Part shown: positions 486 through 15,115 of the stretch, piece after piece
Position numbering within the stretch: the stretch's first letter is position 1
Layout: each line of letters starts with the position of its first letter
Origin: Myxococcales bacterium
GTDB taxonomy: Bacteria; Myxococcota; Myxococcia; Myxococcales; Anaeromyxobacteraceae
DNA length: 19,284 bases
Assembly (NCBI GenBank): GCA_038320275.1
Contig: JBBQEB010000067.1
Coordinates: forward strand, 1 to 19,284
Direction of reading: 5' to 3'
The notes under the pieces: model-generated
Seen by the model: the letters and a program-made list of their open reading frames with translations, nothing else
Told to the model about the DNA's origin: nothing
Database searches by the model: none
Translations under genes and position numbers: made by a program

Positions 486-1361
486 TTATGCCGCCAAGGT
501 GCCCGAGCGCCAGTTGAACTCGGTCTCGTTGGGGCTGCGGTAGTTGTTCTTGGAGTGAAGCCTCCTTGCGTTGTAGTAGCTCTCGATGAAGGTGAACACT
601 TCGTGCTCTGCGTCCGTCGCCTTCCGCCAGGCCGAGCCCGGAGCCATCTCGAACTCGAGCGTGGAGAAGAAGCTTTCCGACGGGGCGTTGTCCCAGCAGT
701 TGCCCTTCCTGCTCATGCTCCGCACCGCCCCAGCCTGCGCGAGCAGCTTTCGGAAGGTCTTGGCCGCGAACTCGATGCCTCGGTCGGAGTGGAACAGCAG
801 GCCGGGTGCAGGGCTACGCCTGGCCAGGGCCTTCCGCAGCGCCTGCCCCGACAGCTCCGCGTCGAGGTTGTCCCCCAGCGACCAGCCGACGACCTTGCGC
901 GAGAACAGGTCGAGGATGACCACCAGGTAGATGAACCCGCCGAGCACCGGCAGGTAGGTGGTGTCGGCCACCCAGGTCTTGTCAGGCGCCTTGGCCGTGA
1001 AGTCGCGGGCAAGGATGTTCGGCGCGATCGGCTCCCGGTGAGAGGAGTCCGTCGTGTTCTTCCAGCGACGCCGCTGGCGCGCCTTCAGGCCCTGTTGTGC
1101 CAGGGAGCGGGCCACCCGTTTTCGGCTGGTCTTGGTGCCTCTCCGGCGCAGCTCCTTCTCCACGCGCGGCGCCCCGTAGCGCCCCTCCTCCTCGGCGAAG
1201 ATGGCCGCGGCGGCAACGTCGAGCTTCTGTTGCTCCAGGTCGCGCTTGGACGGGCCGCGGGTCTCGAAGGCATGGTGGCCGGAACGGGAGAGCCCGAGCG
1301 CCCTGCACATCAGCGCCTTCGGGAAGTTCGCCTTCTCTGCCTCGATGAGCTCAAAGCTCAT
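486..1361 (-). CDS. IS3 transposase OrfB (DDE/rve integrase core), 291 aa
   Basis: YGAPRV, PNILARDF, WVADTTY (D), DLFSRKVVGW, HSDRG (D), GNCWDNAPSESFF (E), YYNARRLHS motifs. Confidence 0.95.
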   Translation of the reverse strand: MSFELIEAEKANFPKALMCRALGLSRSGHHAFETRGPSKRDLEQQKLDVAAAAIFAEEEGRYGAPRVEKELRRRGTKTSRKRVARSLAQQGLKARQRRRWKNTTDSSHREPIAPNILARDFTAKAPDKTWVADTTYLPVLGGFIYLVVILDLFSRKVVGWSLGDNLDAELSGQALRKALARRSPAPGLLFHSDRGIEFAAKTFRKLLAQAGAVRSMSRKGNCWDNAPSESFFSTLEFEMAPGSAWRKATDAEHEVFTFIESYYNARRLHSKNNYRSPNETEFNWRSGTLAA

Positions 1362-1654
1362 CTTCCGCTCCTGGCAAAGAAGGCTGCAGCTTTTCGGAGG
1401 AAGTCCCGCTCCTGCGACACCGTCTTGAACTCGCGCCGCAGCCGGGTCAGCTCCGCGCGCTCCTCGCTCGTCAGCGGCCCCTGTGGGTCCCGCTTCCCGT
1501 CGATCCGGCGCTGCTTCACCCAGGCCCGCACCGCCGTCTCCGTCAGGTCCATCTCCTGCGCCACCTGGCCGATGCTCTTGCCGCTGGCCTGGACCAACCC
1601 CACCACCTCAGCCTTGTACTCGGCCGAGAACTTCCGCCGCTTTCGCTTCTCCAT
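1358..1654 (-). CDS. IS3 transposase OrfA (HTH), 98 aa
   Basis: RRKFSAEYKAEVV...SIGQVAQEMDL...VRAWVKQ HTH, coiled-coil ELTRLRRE, ending LRKAAAFFAR; ATGA overlap with orfB. Confidence 0.95.
   Translation of the reverse strand: MEKRKRRKFSAEYKAEVVGLVQASGKSIGQVAQEMDLTETAVRAWVKQRRIDGKRDPQGPLTSEERAELTRLRREFKTVSQERDFLRKAAAFFARSGR
1390..1394 (-). other. Candidate -1 programmed frameshift motif A-AAA-G fusing OrfA to OrfB
   Basis: Minus strand CGA AAA GCT in orfA; the -1 frame (AAA AGC TGC AGC CTT CTT TGC CAG GAG CGG AAG ATG) is open into the orfB ATG; E. coli IS3 uses an A4G motif. Confidence 0.65.
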
Positions 1655-1705: not shown

Positions 1706-1951
1706 CTGCGGAATCCAAGCCGCTGCGTCCCGGGGCCTCGCGCCTAGGACGAAACGCTACCCTCCACGCCTCCACCGCTGTTGCAGGGCGAAGCTCCGTG
1801 CCGGCCAGCAGGACTCGGGCCAGCGGCGGCGCTGACTAGGAGGCCAAAGGGCGGCGGCACCGGCACCCCTGGCACACCGCCCGACCGCCCCAAGCGCGCA
1901 CCTCCGAATCTGCCACATCGCTGCCATATTCGTCCGCAGCGAGGTGGGCGT

Positions 1952-3988
1952 ATGCGGTGGTCGAGCTCCAGCGGTCGAATCAGCAATCTGTGGTGGCCGG
2001 CAGTGGTCCTGCTCGCCTGCGGAGGGTTCGCGCCGGAGCAGGCGGTGACCTCGCAGGCGATCGGCATCAGTATCGCACCCGACCGGGTCACGCTTGCGGC
2101 CGGTGGCCAGCGGCAGCTCACCGCCACTGTCACCGGGCTGGCCGGCGCGCGGCTGGATTGGTCGGTCGCGGAGGGCTCGGGGGGCGGGTCCGTGAGCGGC
2201 GACGGCCTCTACACCGCGCCGGCGAGCGCCGGGAGCTATCACGTGGTGGCCAACGTGGCAGGGCACCCGGAGGCGAGCGCCACGGCGACGGTGACCATCA
2301 CCAGAGGCGCAGCCAGTCTCGTCCTGTCGCCCACGCAGGCATCGGTGCCGGAAGGAGGGACGCTCGCCTTCACGGCGACCGTGGACGGCTCCACGGAGGC
2401 CGTCACCTGGAGCGTCGTCGAGGGCGCCTCGGGAGGCTCCATCGACGCGACCGGCCGATACACCGCGCCCCGGGCGGCCGGCACCTGGCACGTGGTTGCC
2501 ACGAGCCAGGCTGACCCGTCGCTCACCGCCACCTCCGCGATCACCGTGACCGCGATCCCGGTTGCCCCGGTGACCGTTACGATAACGCCCGCCACCGCCA
2601 CGGTGCAGGCAGGGAGCACCGTCCAGTTCGCCGTCGCTCCCCAGGGAAGCACCACTCCAGTCGTGACCTGGGCCGTCGCCGAGGGCGCAAGCGGTGGGAG
2701 CGTGAGCTCGAGCGGTCTGTACACCGCTCCGCTCACCGCCGGGGTCTATCACCTGGTCGTTACGAGTGTTGCCGACCCGAGCGCAACGGCAACTGCGACC
2801 GTCACGGTGACCGCGGTCTTGGTCCAGCCAGTCACCGTCACGGTAACGCCCGCCACCGCCACGGTGCAGGCAGGCAGCACCGTGCAGTTCGGTGCGACCT
2901 CGCAAGGCAGCTCGGCGCCGGCGGTCACCTGGACCGTTGCCGAGGGCGCGAGCGGCGGCACCGTAAACGCCCTCGGCCTCTACACCGCTCCGCTAAGCGC
3001 GGGCGTCTACCACGTTGTCGCTACCAGCGCTATTGACCCGACCGCGAGATCGATTGCTACGGTCACGGTGACCGCGGTGGTGAGCGAGCCGATCACGCTG
3101 ACGGTGACGCCTGCCACGGCGACGCTTCAGGTGAAGAGCACCCTGCAATTCGCAGTGACCTCGCAGGACAACCCCGCTCCACCCGTGACGTGGACAATCG
3201 CGGAAGGTTTCGGCAAGATCAGCGCCACCGGCTTGTACACTGCCACGAGCATTCCAGGTGTTTACCATGTGATCGCCACGAGCAGCGCCGACCCGAGCGC
3301 AACGTCGACCGCCACCGTCACCGTCATGGACGGCTTGGGGGAGAACCTCATCGATCGCGGCGGTCCGGTCTTGGCGACCCCTCGCGTGTACATGATCTGG
3401 TGGGGGGACCAGGCCCTCCTCGCGAGCCCAAAGACTGCCGTCGAGTCGTTCATCGCCGACCTGGAGGGCTCGAGCTACCTCGGCACCTCCGAGCAGTACC
3501 TGCGCGGCGCCAAGCCCCACGTGTCGCTGGCCGGGCAATTCTACGATCCCCACATCCCAGCGAAAGCGTTCGGCACGGACTTACATCCCGAGGTCTGCTC
3601 CATCATCGCGGCTTCTGGGCAACCGATCGACCCGCTGGGCGTCTATGTCCTGGTCACGTCATTCTTCGTCAATGTAGGGGGCGCGGGAGGGCATAGCGAC
3701 ACTGTTTGTAACGGCGTGGTCTTGCGGGAGGTTTGGATCCGGGCGGAACAAGGGATCGTCACGGCTTGCCCGACGGCGGATTGGCGCGCCGACTCCGTCG
3801 TCGAGACCTTTTCCCATGAGCTGCTCGAGACGATGACCGAACCTGGGCCCGGGAGAGCGTGGCAAGACCCGCTCGGTCAGGAGATCGGGGACAAGTGCAA
3901 TTATTCGACCTGCGAGAAGCTCGGAACCCGATACTGGCCGGTGAACCCCTTGTGGTCCAATGCGGCCGGTGCTTGCGTCTCGCACTGA
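1952..3988 (+). CDS. Lipoprotein (678 aa) with five Ig-like (Big_2-like) repeats and a C-terminal EXORDIUM/Phi-1-like domain
   Basis: ATG 1952 preceded by SD-like GAGGTGG (1941-1947); signal peptide with lipobox VLLA-C23; five ~80-87 aa repeats (P..AT...G.T.QF...W.V.EG..GG.V...GLYTAP...G.YHVVATS..DP...ATATVTV); C-terminal GGPVL..P.VY.IWWG, SHELLETMTEP, GQEIGDKC. Confidence 0.85.
   Translation: MRWSSSSGRISNLWWPAVVLLACGGFAPEQAVTSQAIGISIAPDRVTLAAGGQRQLTATVTGLAGARLDWSVAEGSGGGSVSGDGLYTAPASAGSYHVVANVAGHPEASATATVTITRGAASLVLSPTQASVPEGGTLAFTATVDGSTEAVTWSVVEGASGGSIDATGRYTAPRAAGTWHVVATSQADPSLTATSAITVTAIPVAPVTVTITPATATVQAGSTVQFAVAPQGSTTPVVTWAVAEGASGGSVSSSGLYTAPLTAGVYHLVVTSVADPSATATATVTVTAVLVQPVTVTVTPATATVQAGSTVQFGATSQGSSAPAVTWTVAEGASGGTVNALGLYTAPLSAGVYHVVATSAIDPTARSIATVTVTAVVSEPITLTVTPATATLQVKSTLQFAVTSQDNPAPPVTWTIAEGFGKISATGLYTATSIPGVYHVIATSSADPSATSTATVTVMDGLGENLIDRGGPVLATPRVYMIWWGDQALLASPKTAVESFIADLEGSSYLGTSEQYLRGAKPHVSLAGQFYDPHIPAKAFGTDLHPEVCSIIAASGQPIDPLGVYVLVTSFFVNVGGAGGHSDTVCNGVVLREVWIRAEQGIVTACPTADWRADSVVETFSHELLETMTEPGPGRAWQDPLGQEIGDKCNYSTCEKLGTRYWPVNPLWSNAAGACVSH
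2063..3330 (+). repeat. Five tandem intragenic Ig-like repeats (~250-261 nt period)
   Basis: Protein-level repeats; identical DNA stretch TAACGCCCGCCACCGCCACGGTGCAGGCAGG at 2583 and 2844 (261 nt apart). Confidence 0.9.
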
Positions 3989-4107
3989 CCGCTTTCGTTG
4001 GGCGCCAGGCGCCAGCGTATTCCGAGTTCGCTGCGCCAACGCCATCCGGCCACTGGCGGAGCCTGGTGTGGAGTCGCGAGTAGAGCGATGGGCCCGTGAG
4101 CGACGCC

Positions 4108-5112
4108 CTACGCCACGCACCAGAAGTCCCGCCCCTCCCTCCAGCCCTGGCGCGCCAGCTCGTCGCGGATGAGGGGCCTCGCTCCCGGTGCGCCGACGGC
4201 GACCAGGAGCGGCAGGCCCCGCGCACGGGCCAGGTCGTGGTGCGACGCGACCGGCGCGCCGCGGACGGTGCGGCCCACCTTCTTGGGATCGACGTCGATG
4301 AACAGGGCCACCCGCACGCCCTCGGCGGCGAGCGCGTCGGCGAAGGCCTTCCCGCTCGGCCCGGCTCCCCACACGGCCACCTCGTCGCGCGCGGCGAGCA
4401 CGGTGCGCCGCAGGAAGGCAGCCTTGAGCGCGCGGTGCCGATCGAGGCCGTAGCGGGGGTCGGTGCGGGTAAGCCGCGCGGTGCTCTCCCTCCACAGAAG
4501 GAGCGGCACCGGGAGGTTGGACAGCTCGCGGCCGGCTTCCGCCAGCCGGAGCCACAGGTCGTAGTCCTCCGGGTAAGGGCCATCGCGCCACCCCCCGACC
4601 GACTCCAGCGCCTCGCGCCGGATCGCCGCCGCGGGGTGCACCAGCGGCGACTCGACCAGGAGATCGCGCCGCACCAGCTCCGGCGTGGTGAGCCCGTTCA
4701 CCCAGCCGACGTAGCGCCGCATGCCGTCGCGCACGGCGCGCCGGGGAAAGGCGCGCACCTGCGAGCCGGCAGCGGCGAGCGCGGGCTGGGCCTCCAGCGC
4801 CTCGAGCTGCAGCGCGAGCCGGCGGGGATGGGCGAGGTCGTCGGCGTCCATGCGGGCGACGACCGGCGCGTCGCAGCGGGCGAGCCCGCGATGGAGCGCC
4901 CGCGCGATGCCCTCCCCCGGGCCGCGCAGGAGGCGCACCCGCGCATCCCGTTCCGCCATCCGCTCCAGCACCGCCGCGGTGCCGTCGGTCGAGCCGTCGT
5001 CCACGGCGACGAGGGCGAGGTCCCGGAAGCTCCCGCGCAGGATGGACCGTGCCGCCGCGCCGACGGTCGCGGCCGCATCGCGGGCGGGCATGAGCACCGC
5101 CACGCGCGGCAT
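4108..5112 (-). CDS. GT2 family glycosyltransferase with C-terminal Rossmann-like domain (QTGAL/B3GNTL1-like), 334 aa
   Basis: ATG 5112 MPRVAVLMPARD, VDDGSTD, RMDADD (DxD), PEDYDLWLR; C-terminal VAVWGAGPSGK...FIDVDPKKVG...EGRDF. The ORF-track extension to 5394 overlaps aroQ and is not adopted. Confidence 0.9.
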   Translation of the reverse strand: MPRVAVLMPARDAAATVGAAARSILRGSFRDLALVAVDDGSTDGTAAVLERMAERDARVRLLRGPGEGIARALHRGLARCDAPVVARMDADDLAHPRRLALQLEALEAQPALAAAGSQVRAFPRRAVRDGMRRYVGWVNGLTTPELVRRDLLVESPLVHPAAAIRREALESVGGWRDGPYPEDYDLWLRLAEAGRELSNLPVPLLLWRESTARLTRTDPRYGLDRHRALKAAFLRRTVLAARDEVAVWGAGPSGKAFADALAAEGVRVALFIDVDPKKVGRTVRGAPVASHHDLARARGLPLLVAVGAPGARPLIRDELARQGWREGRDFWCVA

Positions 5113-5117
5113 CGTGG

Positions 5118-5666
5118 CTACTCGTAGTCGCCGCGGGCGCTGGGGTCGACCGGGAGCGGCTCCTCGGAGAAGCCCTGCAGCTGGGCTCGCTTCGCCGGCT
5201 CCGCCTCCGCAACGGACGGCGGCTCCACGCGCGGCTTTCCGCCGAGGCCGCGGCAGAGGTACTCGGCCGCGAACTTGTAGCCCAGGACGCCGAGGCCAAA
5301 GATCCCGCCGCGCGCCGCCTCGGAGACGAAGCTCTCGCGGCGCCAGCTCTCGCGGGCGTGGATGTTGGAGAGGTGCACCTCCACGGTGGGGCACTTCAGC
5401 GCGCGCAAGCAGTCGGGCAGCGCCCGGCTGGTATGCGAGAGGGCGCCCGGATTGAGGATGACCCCTTCGGCCTCCTTGCGGTGCGCTTGGATGAAGTCGA
5501 GGAGCGCCCCCTCGGAATTCGACTGGAACGCCTTCACCTCCACGCCCCGCTCGGCGCAGACCTGGCGCACCATCCGCTCCACGTCGAAGAGCGTCTCGCG
5601 TCCGTAGATCTCCGGCTCTCGCTCCCCGAGCAGGTTCAGGTTGGGGCCATTCACCAGAAGGATCAT
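5118..5666 (-). CDS. aroQ: Type II 3-dehydroquinate dehydratase
   Basis: NGPNLNLLGEREPEIYG, FQSNSEG, NPGALSHTS, EVHLSNIHARE motifs. Confidence 0.96.
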   Translation of the reverse strand: MILLVNGPNLNLLGEREPEIYGRETLFDVERMVRQVCAERGVEVKAFQSNSEGALLDFIQAHRKEAEGVILNPGALSHTSRALPDCLRALKCPTVEVHLSNIHARESWRRESFVSEAARGGIFGLGVLGYKFAAEYLCRGLGGKPRVEPPSVAEAEPAKRAQLQGFSEEPLPVDPSARGDYE

Positions 5667-5667
5667 G

Positions 5668-6744
5668 TCACGCTCCGATCTCTCTCACTGCGCGCCGGAC
5701 GGCCGACGCCTCCACGACGACGTCCCACTCCACCGTCCACCGATCTCCCGCCCCGCGCGGCAGCACCCAGCGCAGTCCATCTGCCGCGCGCTTCTTGTCG
5801 CTCGACATGAGCCTGGCGGCCCTGGTGGCGAGGGGCGCGGGCACCCGCACCGGGAGCCGCGCCGCGACGAGCGCGCTCTCCACGGCGTCCACCGCCGCGC
5901 CGTCCACCCGGCCCGCGAGTCGCGCCAGCCGGAAGGCGAAGACGACTCCCACCGCCACCGCTTCACCATGTGTATAGCGGTCGAATCCGCCGGCCGCCTC
6001 CACCCCGTGCCCGAAGGTGTGCCCCAGGTTGAGGAGCTTGCGCTCCGCCCGCTCCTTGGGGTCGCGCTCCACCACCTCGAGCTTCATGCGGGCGCATCGG
6101 GCGAGGAGCTCGGCGTCGATGCGGCCGGAGCGCGCGGCGGCGACAGCGAGCGGAAGCAGCGCCGGATCGAGGGCGCCGTACTTCAGCACCTCGCCGAAGC
6201 CGCTCCGCAGCTCTCGGGCGGGGAGGGTCTTCAGCGCGGTTGGATCGGCGAGGACGGCCAGCGGCGGGTGAAAAGCTCCCACCGCGTTCTTGGCGCGCGG
6301 AAGGTTCACGGCGGTCTTCCCGCCCAGGGCGGCGTCGACCATGCCGAGGAGCGTGGTGGGCACCGCCACCCAGGGGATGCCGCGCATGAAGGTGGCGGCG
6401 AGAAAGCCGCCCGCGTCGGTCACCGCCCCTCCCCCGAGGGCGACCACCAGGCTGCGCCGGGTGGCTCCTGCCCGGAGCAGCCGGCTCGCCGCTCGCTCGA
6501 GCTGGGCCAGCGTCTTGCCGCGCTCCCGGTCGGGAAGCGTCACCATCACGTGGGCAGGCGCCGCCCGCGCCAGCGCCCGCGCCGCGCGCCTTCCGAAGGG
6601 CGTCGCCAGCACGGGCGGGCAGGAGACGAGCGCCACCAGGTCGCGCTCCGCCGCGAGCGCCGCGAGCGCCGCCGCGGCGCCCTCGCCCACCACCACCCGG
6701 TAGCGATGCGCCTCCTGGACGGCCTCGAGGACGGTCGCGCTCAC
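5668..6744 (-). CDS. aroB: 3-dehydroquinate synthase
   Basis: ALGGGAVTDAGGF, RGI...PTTLLGMVDAALGGKTAVN, KNAVGAFHPP, EVLKY, LNLGHTFGHGVE, HGEAVAVG, DKK; GTG start overlapping the aroK stop. Confidence 0.96.
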   Translation of the reverse strand: MSATVLEAVQEAHRYRVVVGEGAAAALAALAAERDLVALVSCPPVLATPFGRRAARALARAAPAHVMVTLPDRERGKTLAQLERAASRLLRAGATRRSLVVALGGGAVTDAGGFLAATFMRGIPWVAVPTTLLGMVDAALGGKTAVNLPRAKNAVGAFHPPLAVLADPTALKTLPARELRSGFGEVLKYGALDPALLPLAVAAARSGRIDAELLARCARMKLEVVERDPKERAERKLLNLGHTFGHGVEAAGGFDRYTHGEAVAVGVVFAFRLARLAGRVDGAAVDAVESALVAARLPVRVPAPLATRAARLMSSDKKRAADGLRWVLPRGAGDRWTVEWDVVVEASAVRRAVREIGA

Positions 6745-7256
6745 CGGGCGCCCTCCCCGGCCTGGACGAGCGCCGCCACCTGACGCGCTACGGCCTCGAC
6801 GCCGAGCCCGTCCACCGGCACGGTGTGATGGGCTCGCTGGTAGAGCGGGAGCCTCTCGGCGTGCAGGGCTCCCCAGCGCCCGGAGAGTGGACGCTCCTCG
6901 GGGGGCCGACGGGCGAGGCGGCGCGCGGCCTCCTCCGCCGTGACGTCGAGGAAGATCACCGTGGCGCTGGCGAGCAGGTGCGCCGAGCCTTCGCGGTCGC
7001 AGAAGGCGCCGCCGCCAAGGTCCACCACCACCGGGCCCGAGAGCCCCAGCACCACTTCGCGCTCCATCGCCCGGAAGGCTTCCTCGCCGTCCTCGGCGAA
7101 GATGCGCGCCACCGGCTTTCCGGCCCGGCGCACCACCTCCTCGTCGGTGGAGACGACCCGCCTGTGCAGCAGCCGCGAGAGAGCGCGCGCCACGGTGGAC
7201 TTGCCCGAGGCCATCATCCCGGTGAGCGCCACCGCCTCAGCGGATGCGGGCGACAT
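6741..7256 (-). CDS. aroK: Shikimate kinase, 171 aa
   Basis: ATG 7256 [21 protein letters not shown] (Walker A), [29 protein letters not shown]. Confidence 0.93.
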
Positions 7257-8382
7257 AGGCCTCGATCGCGCCCGCGATGTCGCCCACCCGGTCTCCGCCG
7301 AACTTCTCCAGGAGCGCGTCCGCGAGCGTCCAGGCCACCACCGCCTCACCGACCACCGAGGCCGCCGGCACCGCGCAGACGTCGCTGCGCTCGTACTTGG
7401 CGGTGGTCTCCGCGCGGGTGGCGAGGTCGACCGTGGGGAGCCCCTTCGTCATGGTGGGGATGGGCTTCATGTACCCGCGGACGAGGAGCGGGGCGCCGTT
7501 GGTGACGCCCGCCTCGAGCCCTCCGGCCCGGTTCGTGTCCCGGTAGAACCCGCGCGCGGCGTCGTGGCGGATGGCGTCGTGGAAGGCGTCCCCGCGCAGC
7601 CGGACCTGCGTCCCCTCCCCCACCTCCGCCGCCCGGATGGCGGGGATGCCGCACAAGGCTCCGGCGAGCCGCGCGTCGAGCCGGCGGTCCGGGTGCACGT
7701 AGGAGCCGAGCCCGGGGGGAAGGCCGGTCGCGTACACCTCGAACGCCCCACCGATGGAGCCCCCGCGCGCCTTCTCGGCGTCGATCAGCTCGCGCCACCG
7801 CGCGGCGGTGGGCTCGTCATCCACCCGCAGGTCGGAGGCCTCGATGGCGGCGAGCGCCTCCGCCCCCGGGGGCGCGCCCACCTTGCGCTCCACCTCGCCG
7901 ATGGCGACCACCCGGCTCGAGACCTGCGCGCCGAAGCGGGCCAGGAGCTGGCGCGCGAGCGAGCCGAGCGCGACGGTGGCGGCGGTGGATCGCGCGCTGG
8001 CCCGCTCCAGGGCGTCGCGCGCGTCGTCGAACCCGTACTTGAGCGCGCCGGCCAGATCGGCGTGGCCGGGGCGGACCTGGGTGAACTTGCGCCCGCCACG
8101 GGCGTACGGGGAGACGAGCTCCTTCCAGCTCTCGTGGTCCTTGTTCCAGACCACCAGCGCGATGGGCGAGCCCAGGGTGACCCCGCCGCGCAGGCCGGAG
8201 AGGAACTGCGCCTCGTCGGTCTCGATCTTCTGGCGGCCGCCGCGGCCGTAGCCCTTCTGCCGGCGGCGCAGGTCGAGGTTCACCAGCTCGAAGTCGACCG
8301 TCAGGCCGGCGGGGAACCCCTCCGCGATGGCGCACAGGCCCGGTCCATGAGATTCACCCGCAGTGAGGTAACGCAAGCTCAT
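7237..8382 (-). CDS. aroC: Chorismate synthase, 381 aa
   Basis: ATG 8382 [76 protein letters not shown]. Confidence 0.97.
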
Positions 8383-9215
8383 CCGTCGCGCGCCGCGGTC
8401 CGCAGCGCCTCCGCCATGACCGGCTCGGGCGCGGGCTTCCCCGTCCAGAGCGTGAAAGCGAGCGTCCCCTGCCCGAGCAGGATCTCCTCGCCGGTGACCA
8501 CCTTGGCGCCCTCGGCGGCGGCGCGCCGCGCAAAGGGCGTGTCGCCGTAGACGAAGTCCACCGCCACCTGTCCCGGGTGCAGGTGAAGCGTGGGGAGCGC
8601 GTCGCCGTTGCCGTCGAGCCCGATGGAGGTCGCGTTGACGATGGTGCTGGCCGCCTCGGACCACATCATGGCCTCGGCCCAGGGGGCCGGCTCCACGCGG
8701 GCGCCGGGAAAGGCCCGCGCCATGCGGAGGCAGAGCGCCTCGGCCTCGGGCGTGCGCCGCGCCGCCACCGCCACCTCGACGCCCGCGGAGAGCAGCGCCC
8801 AGGCCGCCCCGTGCGCCGCACCTCCCGCGCCGAGGAGGAGGGCGCGCGAGCCCTTCGTAAGCCCCGCCGCCACCATCAGCGCACGGCAGGCCGGGGCATC
8901 GGTGTTGTAGCCCTCCCACCCTCGCGAGGTGCGCCGGAGCGTGTTGACCGCTCCGCACGCCTCGGCCGTGCCGTCGAGCCCGAGGCAGAGCGCGGCCGTG
9001 CGCTTCTTGTGCGGCACGGTGACGGAGAGCCCCTGGAACCCGAGGGCATGCGCCCCGCGCAGCGCCTCCTCCAGCCGGTCGGAAGGGACCGGAAGGGCCA
9101 CGTACGCGGCGTTGAGGCCGAGCGCCGCAAAGGCCGCGTTGTGCATGGCGGGGGAGAGGCTGTGCGCCACGGGGTGGCCCACGACGCCGAAGAGCGCGGT
9201 CGTTCCCGAGATCAT
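8379..9215 (-). CDS. aroE: Shikimate dehydrogenase
   Basis: [62 protein letters not shown]. Confidence 0.96.
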
Positions 9216-10501
9216 GGCCTCACCTCCGCGAGACGGTCGAGGATGGCGAAGAAGGACGGGAAGCTGGTGGCGACGCAGGCCACGTCGTCCAGCTCCACCG
9301 CTTCGCCCTGGGTGAAGAGCTGCGCCACCGCCATGCTCATGGCGACCCGGTGGTCGAGCTTCGTCTGCACGGCGACGCCGCGCAGCGGGGTCGGCCCCTC
9401 GATCGCGCAGCCGTCCTCGAACAGCTCGATGCGGGCTCCCGCCCGCGAGAGCGCGTCGCCCATGCTGGCGAGCCGGTCCGACTCCTTCACCCGCAGCTCG
9501 CGCGCGTCCCGGAGGACCGTGCGCCCGCGCGCCTGGGTGGCGAGGACCATCACCGCCGGGAGCTCGTCGATGAGCCGGGGCACCAGCGCCCCCTCGACGG
9601 TGGTCCCGCGCAGCGGCGCAGCGCGCACGGTGACGTCGCCGCGCGGCTCGCCGGGCCCGGCGGTGGGCACCACCTCGACGCCGGCGCCCATGTCCCGCAG
9701 CACGTCGAGGAGCCCGCAGCGCGTGGGGTTGAGCCCGACGCCGCGGGCGGTGACCTCCGAGCCTTCCAGCGCGGCCGCGGCGCAGAGGAAGAACGCGGCG
9801 GAGGAGATATCACCCGGCACCTCGATGGCCGTGCCGCGCGGTCGCCCGGGCGACACGGTGACGCCCTCCGGCCCGGCGTGCACGCCCACCCCCATGGCGG
9901 CGAGGAGCCGCTCGGTGTGGTCGCGCGATGGGTGCGGCTCCACCACGGTGGTGAGCCCGTCGGCGAACAGCCCGGCGAGGAGCAGCGCGCTCTTCACTTG
10001 CGCGCTCGCCACGGGTAGCCGGTGGCGGGCGCCGCGCAGCGGCCCACCCAGCACCACCACCGGGGGAAGCCTGTCGCCGTCGCGGGCGTGCACCACGGCG
10101 CCCATGGTCCGCAGCGGCTCCAGGACCCTGCGCACGGGCCGGCGCCGGAGCGAGGCGTCGCCGGTGAGCACCGACAGTCCCGGCACGGCGGCCAGCACGC
10201 CGCACAAGAGCCGCAGGCTGGTCCCCGAGTTGCCGCAGTCGATCACGTCCCCGGGCTCGGAGAGCCGCTCGGGCGGCTCGACCCACACCAGCGGGCCCTC
10301 CTCTCGAACGCGGGCCCCGAGCGACTCCACCGCGCGCCGCGTCGCGCGCACGTCCTCCGCTTCCAGGAGCCCTCTCACCGACGAGCGCGAGGACGCGAGC
10401 GCCGCGAAGAGCAGGGCGCGGTGCGAGACCGACTTGTCGCCCGGCACCTCGAAGGACCCGCGCAGCGGGCCCTCCCTCCGGCAGGAGGCGGGCGTCTTCA
10501 T
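9212..10501 (-). CDS. aroA: EPSP synthase (3-phosphoshikimate 1-carboxyvinyltransferase), class II motifs, 429 aa
   Basis: ATG 10501; [67 protein letters not shown]. Confidence 0.97.
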
Positions 10502-11367
10502 CCCGCCTCCGCTTCCGGGTAGAGCGCTTCCCGGGCGAGCCGGGCTCCCTCCAGCGCCGAGCGGGCGGAGCCCGACGCATCGCCCGCTGCCTGGAGCAGG
10601 CGCGCCAGCTCCTCGTGGAGCGCCTCGGCCGCCGCAGGCAGCCGGCGGTTCCTGCGCGCCACCTCCCCCTGGATGTCGAACGGGAAGCGGGCGAGCCGGG
10701 TCATATCCCGCAGCCCGGGCCCGGCCAGCTCCGCCGCGAGCGGGCCGGCCCTGCGCGCCGCCAGCGCGAGCGCGCTCGCCACGAGATAGGGGAGGTGCGA
10801 GACGGTGGCGACCGCGGCATCGTGCTCCTTCGCGCGGCAGCGCACCACCCGCGCCCCGAGCGCCGCGTGGAAGGCGGCGACGCGCTCCACGGCCGCGGGA
10901 TCTCCGTCGGTGCACACGGCGACTGTTCCGCCGCGCCACAGCTCGGCGCGGGCCCCGGCGTACCCGCCGTGGCCGCCGAACATGGGGTGCGCGCCCGCGA
11001 ACCCGACCCCGGGCCGGACGCTCCTCGCCGCCGCGGCGACGAGCTCCTCCTTGGCCCCGCCCACGTCGCTCAGGACCGCGCCGTCCCCCATCGCGCGCGA
11101 CGCCGGGGCGAGCAGCTCCTCGATGGCGGCCACCGGCGTGCACAGGACGACGATGGCGCAGCCGGCCAGCTCCGGGCCTGCGGCGGCGAGATCGGCGAGC
11201 GCCACGTCGGCCACGCCGTCCGCGATCGCTGCCCGGCGGATCTCCTCGCGCGGCTCCACCGCCACGATCCGGACCGCCGGGTCCTTCGCCCTCGCGGCGC
11301 GCGCGAGCGAGGCGCCCATGAGCCCGAGGCCCACCACGCCCAGCGCGCGCGGCAGGGCTTCCTTCAC
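10498..11367 (-). CDS. tyrA: Prephenate/arogenate dehydrogenase, 289 aa
   Basis: GTG 11367 (GTGA overlap with aroF stop); [55 protein letters not shown]. Confidence 0.93.
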
Positions 11368-12392
11368 AGGCTGCGCCCGACCGCCTTCGCCACGGCCGAC
11401 AGGCTCGGCATGAGCTCGGCGAACATCGCGGGCGTGAGGGACTGCGGCCCGTCGGACATGGCGCGGGCCGGGTCGGGGTGCACCTCGATGATGAGCGCGT
11501 CGGCGCCGGCGGCGAGGCCCGCCCGCGACATGGCGGTGACGAGGGTGCGCTTTCCGGTCCCGTGGGACGGATCGACCACCACCGGCAGGTGCGACAGCTC
11601 CTTCAGCACGGGCACGGCCGAGAGGTCGAGCGTGTTGCGGGTGGCGCGCTCGTAGGTGCGGATGCCGCGCTCGCAGAGGATGACGTTGCGGTTGCCCTCG
11701 GCGAGCACGTACTCCGCCGCCATGAGGAGCTCCTCGCTGGTGCCGGAGAGCGCGCGCTTGAGCAGCACCGGCTTTTTGGCGCGGCCGCAGGCTTGGAGCA
11801 GGTTGTAGTTCTGCATGTTGCGCGCGCCGATCTGGAGGCAGTCGGCGTACTCGTCCACCATGGGAACCATCTCCGGCGACATCACCTCGGTGATGACGGG
11901 CATCCCGGTGAGCTCCCGGGCGCGGGCGAGGATCTGCAGCCCCTTCTCTCCCAGGCCCTGAAACGAGTACGGGCTGGAACGCGGCTTGAACGCGCCGCCG
12001 CGCAGCACCCGCGCACCGGACGCCCGCACCGCCTGGGCGACCTCGCTCATCTGCTCCTGGCTCTCCACCGCGCAGGGGCCCGCGATGACGACCACCTCGG
12101 CCCCGCCGATCCGCACCGCGCCGGGGCCGGTGCCGAGCGTCACGATGGAGGGCTCGGGGTGGAAGTCCACCGAGGCGAGCTTGAAGGGCTTCAGCACCCG
12201 GACGCACTCGGACACGCCCGGCAGCCCCTCGAACATGCCCGCGTCGGCCACCCGGCGGTCGTCGCCGATGACGCCGATGATGGTGCGCTCCTCGCCGCGG
12301 GAGACGTTGTGCCGGAACCCGGCCTCGGAGATGCGCGCCAGCACGCCCTCCACCTCCGCATCGCCAGCGCCCTTCTTCATCACCACGATCAC
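11364..12392 (-). CDS. aroF: DAHP synthase, type I-beta with N-terminal regulatory (ACT/ferredoxin-like) domain
   Basis: GTG start after SD GAGGTGA; MIVVMK...[10 protein letters not shown]-domain; [64 protein letters not shown]. Confidence 0.96.
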
Positions 12393-12405
12393 GACTTCAC
12401 CTCGT

Positions 12406-12762
12406 TCACTTGTGCAGGTCGGGGCGGAGCACCTTCGCTCCGCGCAGGTAGACGTGGTGCGCCTCGGCCGGGGCGCCGCTGTCCACGTGAATGAGCACGC
12501 GCACCGTGCGCGGCAACGAGCCGGGCACGGGGATCTCGCGCGAGCAGATCATCGGCACCCGGTTCCAGCCGCCCTTCACGCGCGCCGCCCGGGCCGGGAA
12601 GTCCGCATCGAGGTCGTGCGTGACCGTGAAGATGGCCCAGACGATCTCCTCCTGGCGCAGGGCGTTGGCCTCGTCGATGGCGCGGCAGAGCTCGGCGACG
12701 GCGTCTTCCATCGCCTCCACGCTGTTCGCGTCGATCTGGGTTGCACCTCGGATGCCGCGCAT
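12406..12762 (-). CDS. aroH: AroH-class (Bacillus/Thermus-type) chorismate mutase
   Basis: [61 protein letters not shown]. Confidence 0.95.
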
Positions 12763-12823: not shown

Positions 12824-13168
12824 CTACCCGGGAGGCCATCCCAGCGCGCGGCCTCCGAGCAGGTGCAGGTGGAGGTGGAACACGGTCTGGCCCGCGTCGG
12901 GCCCGCAGTTCACCACCGTGCGCCAGCCCCGCGTCCCGAGCCCCCGCTCCCGCGCGAGCCGGGTCGCGGCGCGGTGGAGATCTCCCACGAGCGCGTCGTC
13001 GGCCTCGGCGAGGTCGTTCAGGCTGGCGACGTGGCGGCGCGGGATCACGAGCAGGTGCACCGGCGCCTGCGGGTTCACGTCCTCGAAGGCGACGAGGTCG
13101 TCCTCCTCCAGCACCAGGCGGGCGGGGATCTCCTTGGCGGCGATCCGGCAGAAGAGGCAGTCGGTCAT
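12824..13168 (-). CDS. hinT: Histidine triad nucleotide-binding protein (HinT/Hint)
   Basis: DCLFCRI, AFEDVNPQAPVHLLVIPRRH, NCGPDAGQTVFHLHLHLLGGR, GWPPG. Confidence 0.95.
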   Translation of the reverse strand: MTDCLFCRIAAKEIPARLVLEEDDLVAFEDVNPQAPVHLLVIPRRHVASLNDLAEADDALVGDLHRAATRLARERGLGTRGWRTVVNCGPDAGQTVFHLHLHLLGGRALGWPPG

Positions 13169-13193
13169 GGAACGTTTCTCCGAAGGAAGGGGG

Positions 13194-13643
13194 TCAGAAG
13201 AGCTTTTCGGAATCGAGGAGGAGGGTGACGGGGCCGTCGTTCACGAGCTCGAGCTGCATGTCGGCGCGGAAGACGCCGGTCGCGACCGGCAGCCCCTTCT
13301 CGCGCAGGAGCGCCACCGTGCGCTCATAGAGTCCCTCGGCCTCCTGCGGTGGCGCGGCGGCGGCAAAGCTCGGGCGATTGCCCCTGCGCGCGTCGCCGAG
13401 GAGCGTGAATTGCGAGACCACCAGCACTCCGCCCCCGGTCTCGGCGACCGACCGGTTCAGCTTGCCCCGCTCGTCCTCGAAGATCCGCAGAGCGGCCAGC
13501 TTGTCCGCCATGGCCTGGGCGGACGCCTCGCCGTCGCCCTGAGCGACCCCGAGCAGCACCGCGAGCCCCTGGCCGATGCGCCCGACGACCTCGCCGCCCA
13601 CGCGCACCTCGGCGCGGAGCACTCTCTGGACCACGGCTCGCAC
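13194..13643 (-). CDS. dtd: D-aminoacyl-tRNA deacylase (D-Tyr-tRNA(Tyr) deacylase), 149 aa
   Basis: GTG 13643 after [55 protein letters not shown]. Confidence 0.96.
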
Positions 13644-14839: not shown

Positions 14840-15115
14840 TCAGCTGTAGACACCTGCCTCGATCCGGCCGAGCACGCGGAGGACGGCCTCGAGGCCCGCC
14901 TGCGTGCGGAGAAGGTCGAGCGGTACCATCCCGCCCAGCGCGCGATTGGGCGTGCGGAGCCATGCGGCGGCCGAGGCTCGATCCTGGAGCACCTCCTCCG
15001 CGCGCGCGGTGGCGCGAGCGCGTCCTCCCGGCTGATCCGATTGGCGCGCGCCGGGAGCAGCAGGGCGAGCCTTGGGTCGCGTCCCCTCGCGGTGACGTTT
15101 CGAAGCGGCCATCAC
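14840..15115 (-). CDS. Antitoxin Xre/MbcA/ParS C-terminal (DUF2384-like) domain protein, orphan
   Basis: AEEVLQDRASAAAWLRTPNRALGGMVPLDLLRTQAGLEAVLRVLGRIEAGVYS is the typical W...PN.ALGG..PL.LL.T..G...V...LGRIE.GV signature; start GTG 15115 or ATG 15112 overlaps the argB stop. Confidence 0.85.
   Translation of the reverse strand: MMAASKRHREGTRPKARPAAPGARQSDQPGGRARATARAEEVLQDRASAAAWLRTPNRALGGMVPLDLLRTQAGLEAVLRVLGRIEAGVYS

Follow-up and report, generated by a model that had tools for sequence, protein, structure and literature searches.

A two-domain bacterial glycosyltransferase family related to animal QTGAL as a candidate source of sugar-modified queuosine in tRNA

The last gene of a long same-strand run in the window, i.e., the whole 19,284-nucleotide stretch of a Myxococcales contig (JBBQEB010000067.1) analyzed here, codes for a GT2 glycosyltransferase (GT) of a bacterial family whose homology to the animal queuosine-tRNA galactosyltransferase (QTGAL or B3GNTL1) is supported across both domains by sequence comparisons and predicted models. 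It is probably an inverting glycosyltransferase for the queuosine (Q) at position 34 of tRNA, and because the gene product matches the animal enzyme end to end, many bacteria likely modify queuosine with a sugar. The wider proposal, namely that glycosylated queuosine occurs in bacteria of many phyla by way of this family, that animal QTGAL descends from it and that tRNA glycosylation is a bacterial invention, might be regarded as evenly balanced. Of the designation "bacterial tRNA (Q34) glycosyltransferase" in the first-pass annotation, the two-domain QTGAL homology and the Q-capable host stand, while activity on Q-tRNA stays conjectural.

The GT gene is a real ORF, running from ATG to TGA with strong codon bias (GC by codon position of 0.82/0.55/0.94). 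A plus-strand shadow ORF at 4096-5127 is not needed and was dropped because the domains and the codon bias sit in the minus-strand frame. The ORF and the Pfam matches agree with the initial description of a 334-aa GT2 protein with an extra C-terminal Rossmann-like domain, starting 5 nt past the aroQ stop. What had been called a tyrosine operon is instead a complete shikimate/chorismate operon that includes aroH and tyrA and has dtd and hit at its head: the same-strand run reads dtd-hit-aroH-aroF-tyrA-aroA-aroE-aroC-aroK-aroB-aroQ-GT, its genes lying -4 to 61 nt apart (Table 1), and the genes from aroH to aroB, aroQ and the GT gene likely form one transcript. A scan of positions 3800-5400 for promoters and terminators found none. 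The first gene of the run that ends with the GT gene is dtd itself (13194-13622, minus strand). Elsewhere in the window are an IS3-type element (486-1654, minus strand), whose HTH_Tnp_1 ORF overlaps the integrase-core ORF by 4 nt; a gene convergent with the GT gene (1781-3988, plus strand) for a large protein, which has several bacterial Ig-like repeats and, at its C-terminus, a domain with no Pfam match; and an ORF with an Xre/MbcA/ParS antitoxin C-terminal domain (14840-15115, minus strand), which overlaps argB and has no partner toxin gene seen alongside.

Table 1. Features of the window that bear on the glycosyltransferase gene
Feature	Position	Strand	Remark
QTGAL-like GT2 glycosyltransferase gene	4108..5112	minus	protein P0002 of 334 aa; ends the run
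C-terminal Rossmann-like domain, residues 222-334	4111..4449	minus	homologous to the QTGAL C-terminal domain
P181-E182-D183, xED motif with predicted catalytic base of an inverting enzyme	4564..4572	minus	
GT-A catalytic core, PF00535, residues 6-172	4597..5097	minus	fold continues to about residue 220
R133-Y134..W137-x-N139 helix	4696..4716	minus	shared with QTGAL
D89-A-D91-D92, metal/nucleotide-sugar binding motif	4837..4848	minus	D89, D91 and D92 invariant
aroQ, type II dehydroquinase	5118..5666	minus	5 nt upstream of the GT gene
aroH-aroF-tyrA-aroA-aroE-aroC-aroK-aroB	5668..12762	minus	gaps of -4 to +13 nt
dtd (D-Tyr-tRNA deacylase family) and hit	12824..13622	minus	head of the same-strand run; gaps of 25 and 61 nt

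The window protein combines a PF00535 match (E 2e-25; 89.8 bits against a cut-off of 23.3) with a DxD motif and an xED base, the features of an inverting CAZy GT2 enzyme of the GT-A type. All 129 bacterial and all 34 eukaryotic rows have D89, D91 and D92, and D183 is present in every one of the 129 bacterial ones; in the portion of PMC7185993 covered, the Asp of the xED motif marks inverting enzymes. The helix from R133 to N139 would form part of the acceptor pocket. Further along, Pfam gives weak Rossmann-type matches at residues 244-312 (CoA_binding, E 1.5e-5; PglD_N, E 0.011). With a maximum 19-residue hydropathy of 1.35 and a compact AlphaFold model (pLDDT 98), the protein is predicted to be soluble and without a membrane anchor. 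Its GT-A fold finds matches of Z up to 25, all of them generic GT2s; because the match list covered residues 1-270, the C-terminal domain was barely tested by the fold search. A PDB sequence search found no structure for the bacterial family.

On the eukaryotic side, a motif scan of metagenome contigs gave eukaryote-like frames, and one of these frames retrieved proteins that carry the name queuosine-tRNA galactosyltransferase or B3GNTL1 at NCBI. The pairwise comparison rests on P0303, a bird rather than human protein named queuosine-tRNA galactosyltransferase, to which the window protein is 26% identical over query residues 3-281 (E 1e-28) and with which the six motif pairs named in the first-pass annotation are indeed colinear. 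At the level of profiles, 129 bacterial against 34 eukaryotic rows match with a probability of 100 and E 3.2e-48 over 326 columns, reaching the C-terminus, so that the window protein has the full-length homology, inclusive of the C-terminal domain, that characterizes QTGAL. The concern that the similarity might be confined to the GT-A fold can be laid aside, as the C-terminal domains alone match with a probability of 98.2 and E 5e-14 over 105 columns (reversed control 0.24). The reciprocal comparison is likewise favorable: in the host assembly (G000), the eukaryotic HMM places the GT gene first of 33,490 six-frame ORFs (70.9 vs 41.8 bits); with the C-terminal part of the HMM, the GT gene is the only match (E 0.0012; next 3.7). 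Among 8,740 ORFs from the collected loci, its first 67 matches are all family members, with 42 family members and zero other ORFs above 12 bits. Twelve of the high-scoring non-family GT2s, picked by hand, are all without the C-terminal domain (at most 4.8 bits). An ESM Atlas search with P0303 returned bacterial clusters of 327-340 aa directly after the eukaryotic ones, and one cluster from it agrees in length, size and Pfam shares with a cluster returned for the window protein (P0002). Structure prediction, one of the checks proposed at the outset, bore out the likeness: AlphaFold models of the bacterial protein and QTGAL (pLDDT 98 and 87) are alike in strand and helix order to the last strand. 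The fold search, as noted, gave only generic GT2s.

By sequence, the family is thus the closest full-length bacterial relative of QTGAL found, with orthology not proven because core-only scores, trees, the C-terminal fold and residue conservation leave it so. Where the GT-A core is concerned, GT2s outside the family do equally well on the QTGAL HMM, whose best match is the family gene in 42 of 68 countable Desulfovibrionales carriers by hand count (of all 84, 15 were without a match at 1e-14 and one was absent from the list). The trees do not establish a sister relationship to QTGAL: a quick tree of 72 rows groups bacteria and eukaryotes with a support of 50, and the eukaryotic branch has a long stem in the trees. 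When a tree was built from the GT-A part only, with 47 rows, the bacterial family and QTGAL came out apart in the free search; a forced clade of the two has a lnL 21.7 higher and is not rejected (p-AU 0.725). QTGAL has 116 columns conserved at 90% or more, and at 35 of these the residue is kept in at least 70% of the bacterial rows, 7 of the 35 being rare in outgroups. Differences on the acceptor side include R87 in place of F, H159 in place of M and the basic stretch at 213-221. The C-terminal domain is, by sequence, of the PglD/CapD Rossmann kind, a fold also found in glycan enzymes: the bacterial C-terminal HMM gives 36.5 bits to a CapD-type glycan enzyme vs a QTGAL median of 39.5, the values for 122 eukaryotic proteins, a large share of which are near-copies, being 28-46 bits.

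Homologues of the window protein mark the host as a relative of the Anaeromyxobacteraceae. Relatives of full length, 34-52% identical, are spread across Chloroflexota, Acidobacteriota, Verrucomicrobiota, Gemmatimonadota, Planctomycetota, Desulfobacterota and others among the best 80 of 117 matches, and family members mostly score above 300 bits on the family HMM. Because only 8-15 candidates per genome were scored, the carrier counts are lower bounds: at least 57 of 151 Myxococcota genomes (12 of 12 in the window's own family), at least 84 of 141 Desulfovibrionales, at least 14 of 251 Chloroflexota (two partial matches dropped) and at least 40 of 251 Planctomycetota (a few matches partial), always with one match per carrier genome in these four lineages. 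Carriers with a species or genus name include Anaeromyxobacter oryzae and members of Pseudodesulfovibrio and Solidesulfovibrio. Within this distribution, the genus g11 has the family in 0 of 13 genomes, next to sister genera with 8 of 10 (g18) and 4 of 4 (g8), at 14 candidates scored per genome. Viral contigs were considered as carriers and set aside, their 10 loci all having the GT-A core only at 20-30% identity. Single members carry N-terminal fusions to a 2-thiouracil desulfurase domain (P0133), a methyltransferase (P0123) and a CYTH domain (P0183), which may be gene-calling artefacts; a CYTH gene also adjoins the family gene in locus L053.

Of 154 family loci, 35 have aroQ next to the GT gene, and these belong without exception to the bacterial family of the window or to kin 65-75% identical; tyrA lies directly upstream of the GT gene in one further Myxococcales locus and shikimate kinase in one Desulfovibrio locus (L072). 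The coupling to tyrA and aro genes had been read as fitting a tRNA(Tyr) substrate, which turns out to be weak evidence because a single bacterial family accounts for the aroQ link; as a substrate clue it was abandoned, the neighbors being different elsewhere. The placement behind aroQ is probably specific to the lineage, with a housekeeping operon serving as a parking spot. A Q gene is near the GT gene in just 5 of 184 loci from three lineages. Links of this kind include queA-queG-GT with junctions of 0 and -4 nt in 2 of 30 Planctomycetota loci (sampled with a prior expectation of this link, not blind), queE directly downstream in L030 and L044, and tgt three genes upstream in L072. The chance of two independent direct adjacencies to Q genes is roughly P 0.01-0.13, unadjusted for the non-blind Planctomycetota sampling. 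Among other RNA-related neighbors are a ttuA-like gene, which precedes the family gene in 8 of 32 Desulfovibrionales loci, a mostly convergent RluA-family gene in 31 of 184 loci, and tsaE, spoU and rsmI once each. No GUN tRNA gene was found near homologues in 60 loci, which have 3 tRNA genes in total. Conserved clustering with tgt in Desulfovibrionales was rejected, as by coordinates only 2 of 84 carriers have it within 10 kb, and a 322-aa radical SAM neighbor first taken for a tRNA enzyme is Rv2578c-like instead. A 65-aa ORF, perhaps for a sulfur carrier, precedes the ttuA-like gene at L117:3447-3644, L135:358-555 and L056:4317-4514, with no Pfam or NCBIfam match where scanned.

The host assembly (90.7% complete) holds tgt, queC, queF, two queG and gluQ along with tRNA genes for Tyr, Asp and Asn. 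A search for queA gave no match in this assembly; the gene is present in 5 of 5 close relatives. This gene content supports a host able to make Q34-tRNA, and the absence of queuosine synthesis or salvage, which would have told against the original proposal, is not what is seen in either the host or distant carriers. The two queG genes lie at C5:50419-51408 and C267:1603-2670, and two tRNA-Sec calls were made (C89, C231), in an assembly with 2.9% contamination. Among 50 distant carrier genomes, 48 have tgt and 49 have queA, with at least one of the two in each. Co-occurrence is necessary, not telling, because the background frequencies are high (tgt 220/251 and queA 177/251; in another sample, tgt 139/141 and queA 137/141); three genomes of the Chloroflexota background (G076, G208, G211) are unpublished, and none of these is a carrier. 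Thus, the suggested check by co-occurrence with tgt, queA and queH passes, with Q genes in nearly all carriers, and does not discriminate, most non-carriers having them too. An apparent counter-case comes from Chloroflexota, where 12 of 14 carriers are without a detected queA (on recheck, 0 of 5 had it); these 12 look like one clade and therefore count once. In all five checked, the main Tgt has Leu and Gly where the Zymomonas enzyme has Cys158 and Val233, a pattern reported for queuine-inserting Tgts in the portion of PMC12301720 covered. Against the GG[LS][AS]G signature in the portion of PMC11570991 covered, they give no exact match, the fourth position being Leu. To judge from these sequences, the queA-less carriers would be compatible with action on Q. 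Four of the five (L149-L152) also hold a second, divergent Tgt-like gene.

Two other readings have to be weighed. That the protein is an orphan cell-envelope GT (for EPS, LPS, S-layer or pilin glycan) of the EpsE/TuaG neighborhood with a PglD/CapD-type C-terminal module appears improbable. It draws on EpsE (NF053739) as the best NCBIfam match, at 82.6 bits against a cut-off of 450 and with no GT model near its cut-off, on glycan GT2s as the nearest solved folds, on C-terminal matches that include PglD_N, NeuD and a CapD-type protein, and on scattered sugar genes (GT1 at L021, an epimerase at L039, a UDP-sugar dehydrogenase at L061, GT4 at L134) together with a PilZ protein gene upstream in L051. 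However, housekeeping genes of mixed kinds, with a few such sugar genes scattered among them, make up the 188 first and second neighbors at 54 distant loci, no flippase, polymerase or GT cluster appears among their Pfam matches or the further neighbors scanned, and the location in a polysaccharide cluster expected of an EpsE-type enzyme is thus wanting along with its score. The single match per genome, the full-length conservation across phyla and the lack of a predicted membrane segment (1 of 129 family rows reaches a mean hydropathy of 1.9) point the same way, so that the earlier judgment against a cell-envelope GT holds, at least in that the typical envelope type is unlikely.

A somewhat more credible, though still unlikely, reading is a cytoplasmic housekeeping GT with another acceptor, be it a different tRNA or rRNA nucleoside, free queuine or queuosine, a protein, or a small metabolite that is aromatic or derived from shikimate, with Q-tRNA specificity having arisen only on the long eukaryotic branch. 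That long stem, the trees without a clear grouping and the differing acceptor-side residues are in keeping with it, as are RNA-modification neighbors that are often not Q genes (the ttuA-like and RluA-family genes, tsaE, spoU and rsmI), the position of the GT gene right behind aro or tyrA genes in Myxococcales and in one Desulfovibrio, and the presence of AvpGT, a nucleoside GT2, among the fold matches, if not at the top. Against it are the queA-queG-GT operons with coupled junctions, the sharing of both domains with QTGAL and the retention of a queuine-type Tgt in the checked queA-less carriers.

As a glycosyltransferase for Q34, the protein would transfer a hexose from a nucleotide sugar, UDP-Gal or another NDP-hexose, to the queuosine that occupies position 34 in at least one tRNA with a GUN anticodon. 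D89-D92 would hold the metal and the NDP-sugar, D183 would deprotonate a hydroxyl of the Q cyclopentene diol, and an SN2 step would yield a beta-glycoside, the kind of product that QTGAL makes. The Y134/W137/N139 helix might line the base pocket with P156, H159 and P160, whereas the conserved basic residues R213, R216, R220, K230, K255, K278, R312 and R316 and the C-terminal domain might grip the anticodon arm. By analogy, one may guess that the acceptor is tRNA(Tyr); GluQ of the host would already occupy Q34 of tRNA(Asp). Mosquitoes have manQ on tRNA(Tyr) and no QTGAL (PMC11705514, in the portion covered), and pairings of sugar and tRNA are therefore not fixed.

In the literature covered, sugar-modified queuosine is described for animals only. 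QTGAL makes a beta-glycoside on a Q cyclopentene hydroxyl from UDP-galactose (covered portions of bioRxiv 10.64898/2026.06.28.735034 and PMC12518689), and Q glycosylation is placed in mammals in the covered portion of PMC11755703. QTGAL falls in the GT2-B3GntL group of PMC7185993, whose pattern group GT2-B3GntL-1 comprises 683 sequences with no bacteria among the supplement rows covered; the one entry with a bacterial label there, a TPR protein of 1,181 aa, falls into another pattern group. In 300,000 of the 309,985 characters of a 2026 compendium of bacterial RNA modifications (PMC13602947), "galQ", "manQ", "glycosyl" and "QTGAL" do not occur, and the GluQ-RS product is the only bacterial Q hypermodification named. 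Titles and abstract openings likewise have no bacterial QTGAL homologues or glycosyl-Q, in line with the initial statement that Q-glycosylation is undescribed in bacteria; figures and supplements, e.g., of Zhao et al. 2023 or the 2024 de Crecy-Lagard review, could show homologues. If true, the proposal would add a new bacterial tRNA modification, assign a function to a family now labeled "cell wall biosynthesis", offer a clue to the origin of QTGAL and provide small bacterial enzymes for structural work on this GT family.

Among known systems, GluQ-RS (YadB), the glutamyl-queuosine tRNA(Asp) synthetase whose gene is present in the host, is a synthetase paralog that adds glutamate and has a fold unrelated to the GT2 of the window protein. 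The EpsE/TuaG/SpsA-type GT2s share the GT-A core, with 60-215 bits on the family HMM and at most 90 bits on the QTGAL HMM; unlike the family, which mostly exceeds 300 bits and is not seen in glycan clusters, the 12 tested are without the C-terminal domain. QTGAL differs from the bacterial family in an identity of about 26% and in R87, H159 and the 213-221 basic stretch, and is like it in the two-domain build (334 vs about 345-360 aa), the colinear motifs, the intact DxD and xED, the lack of a membrane segment and the same predicted order of structural elements.
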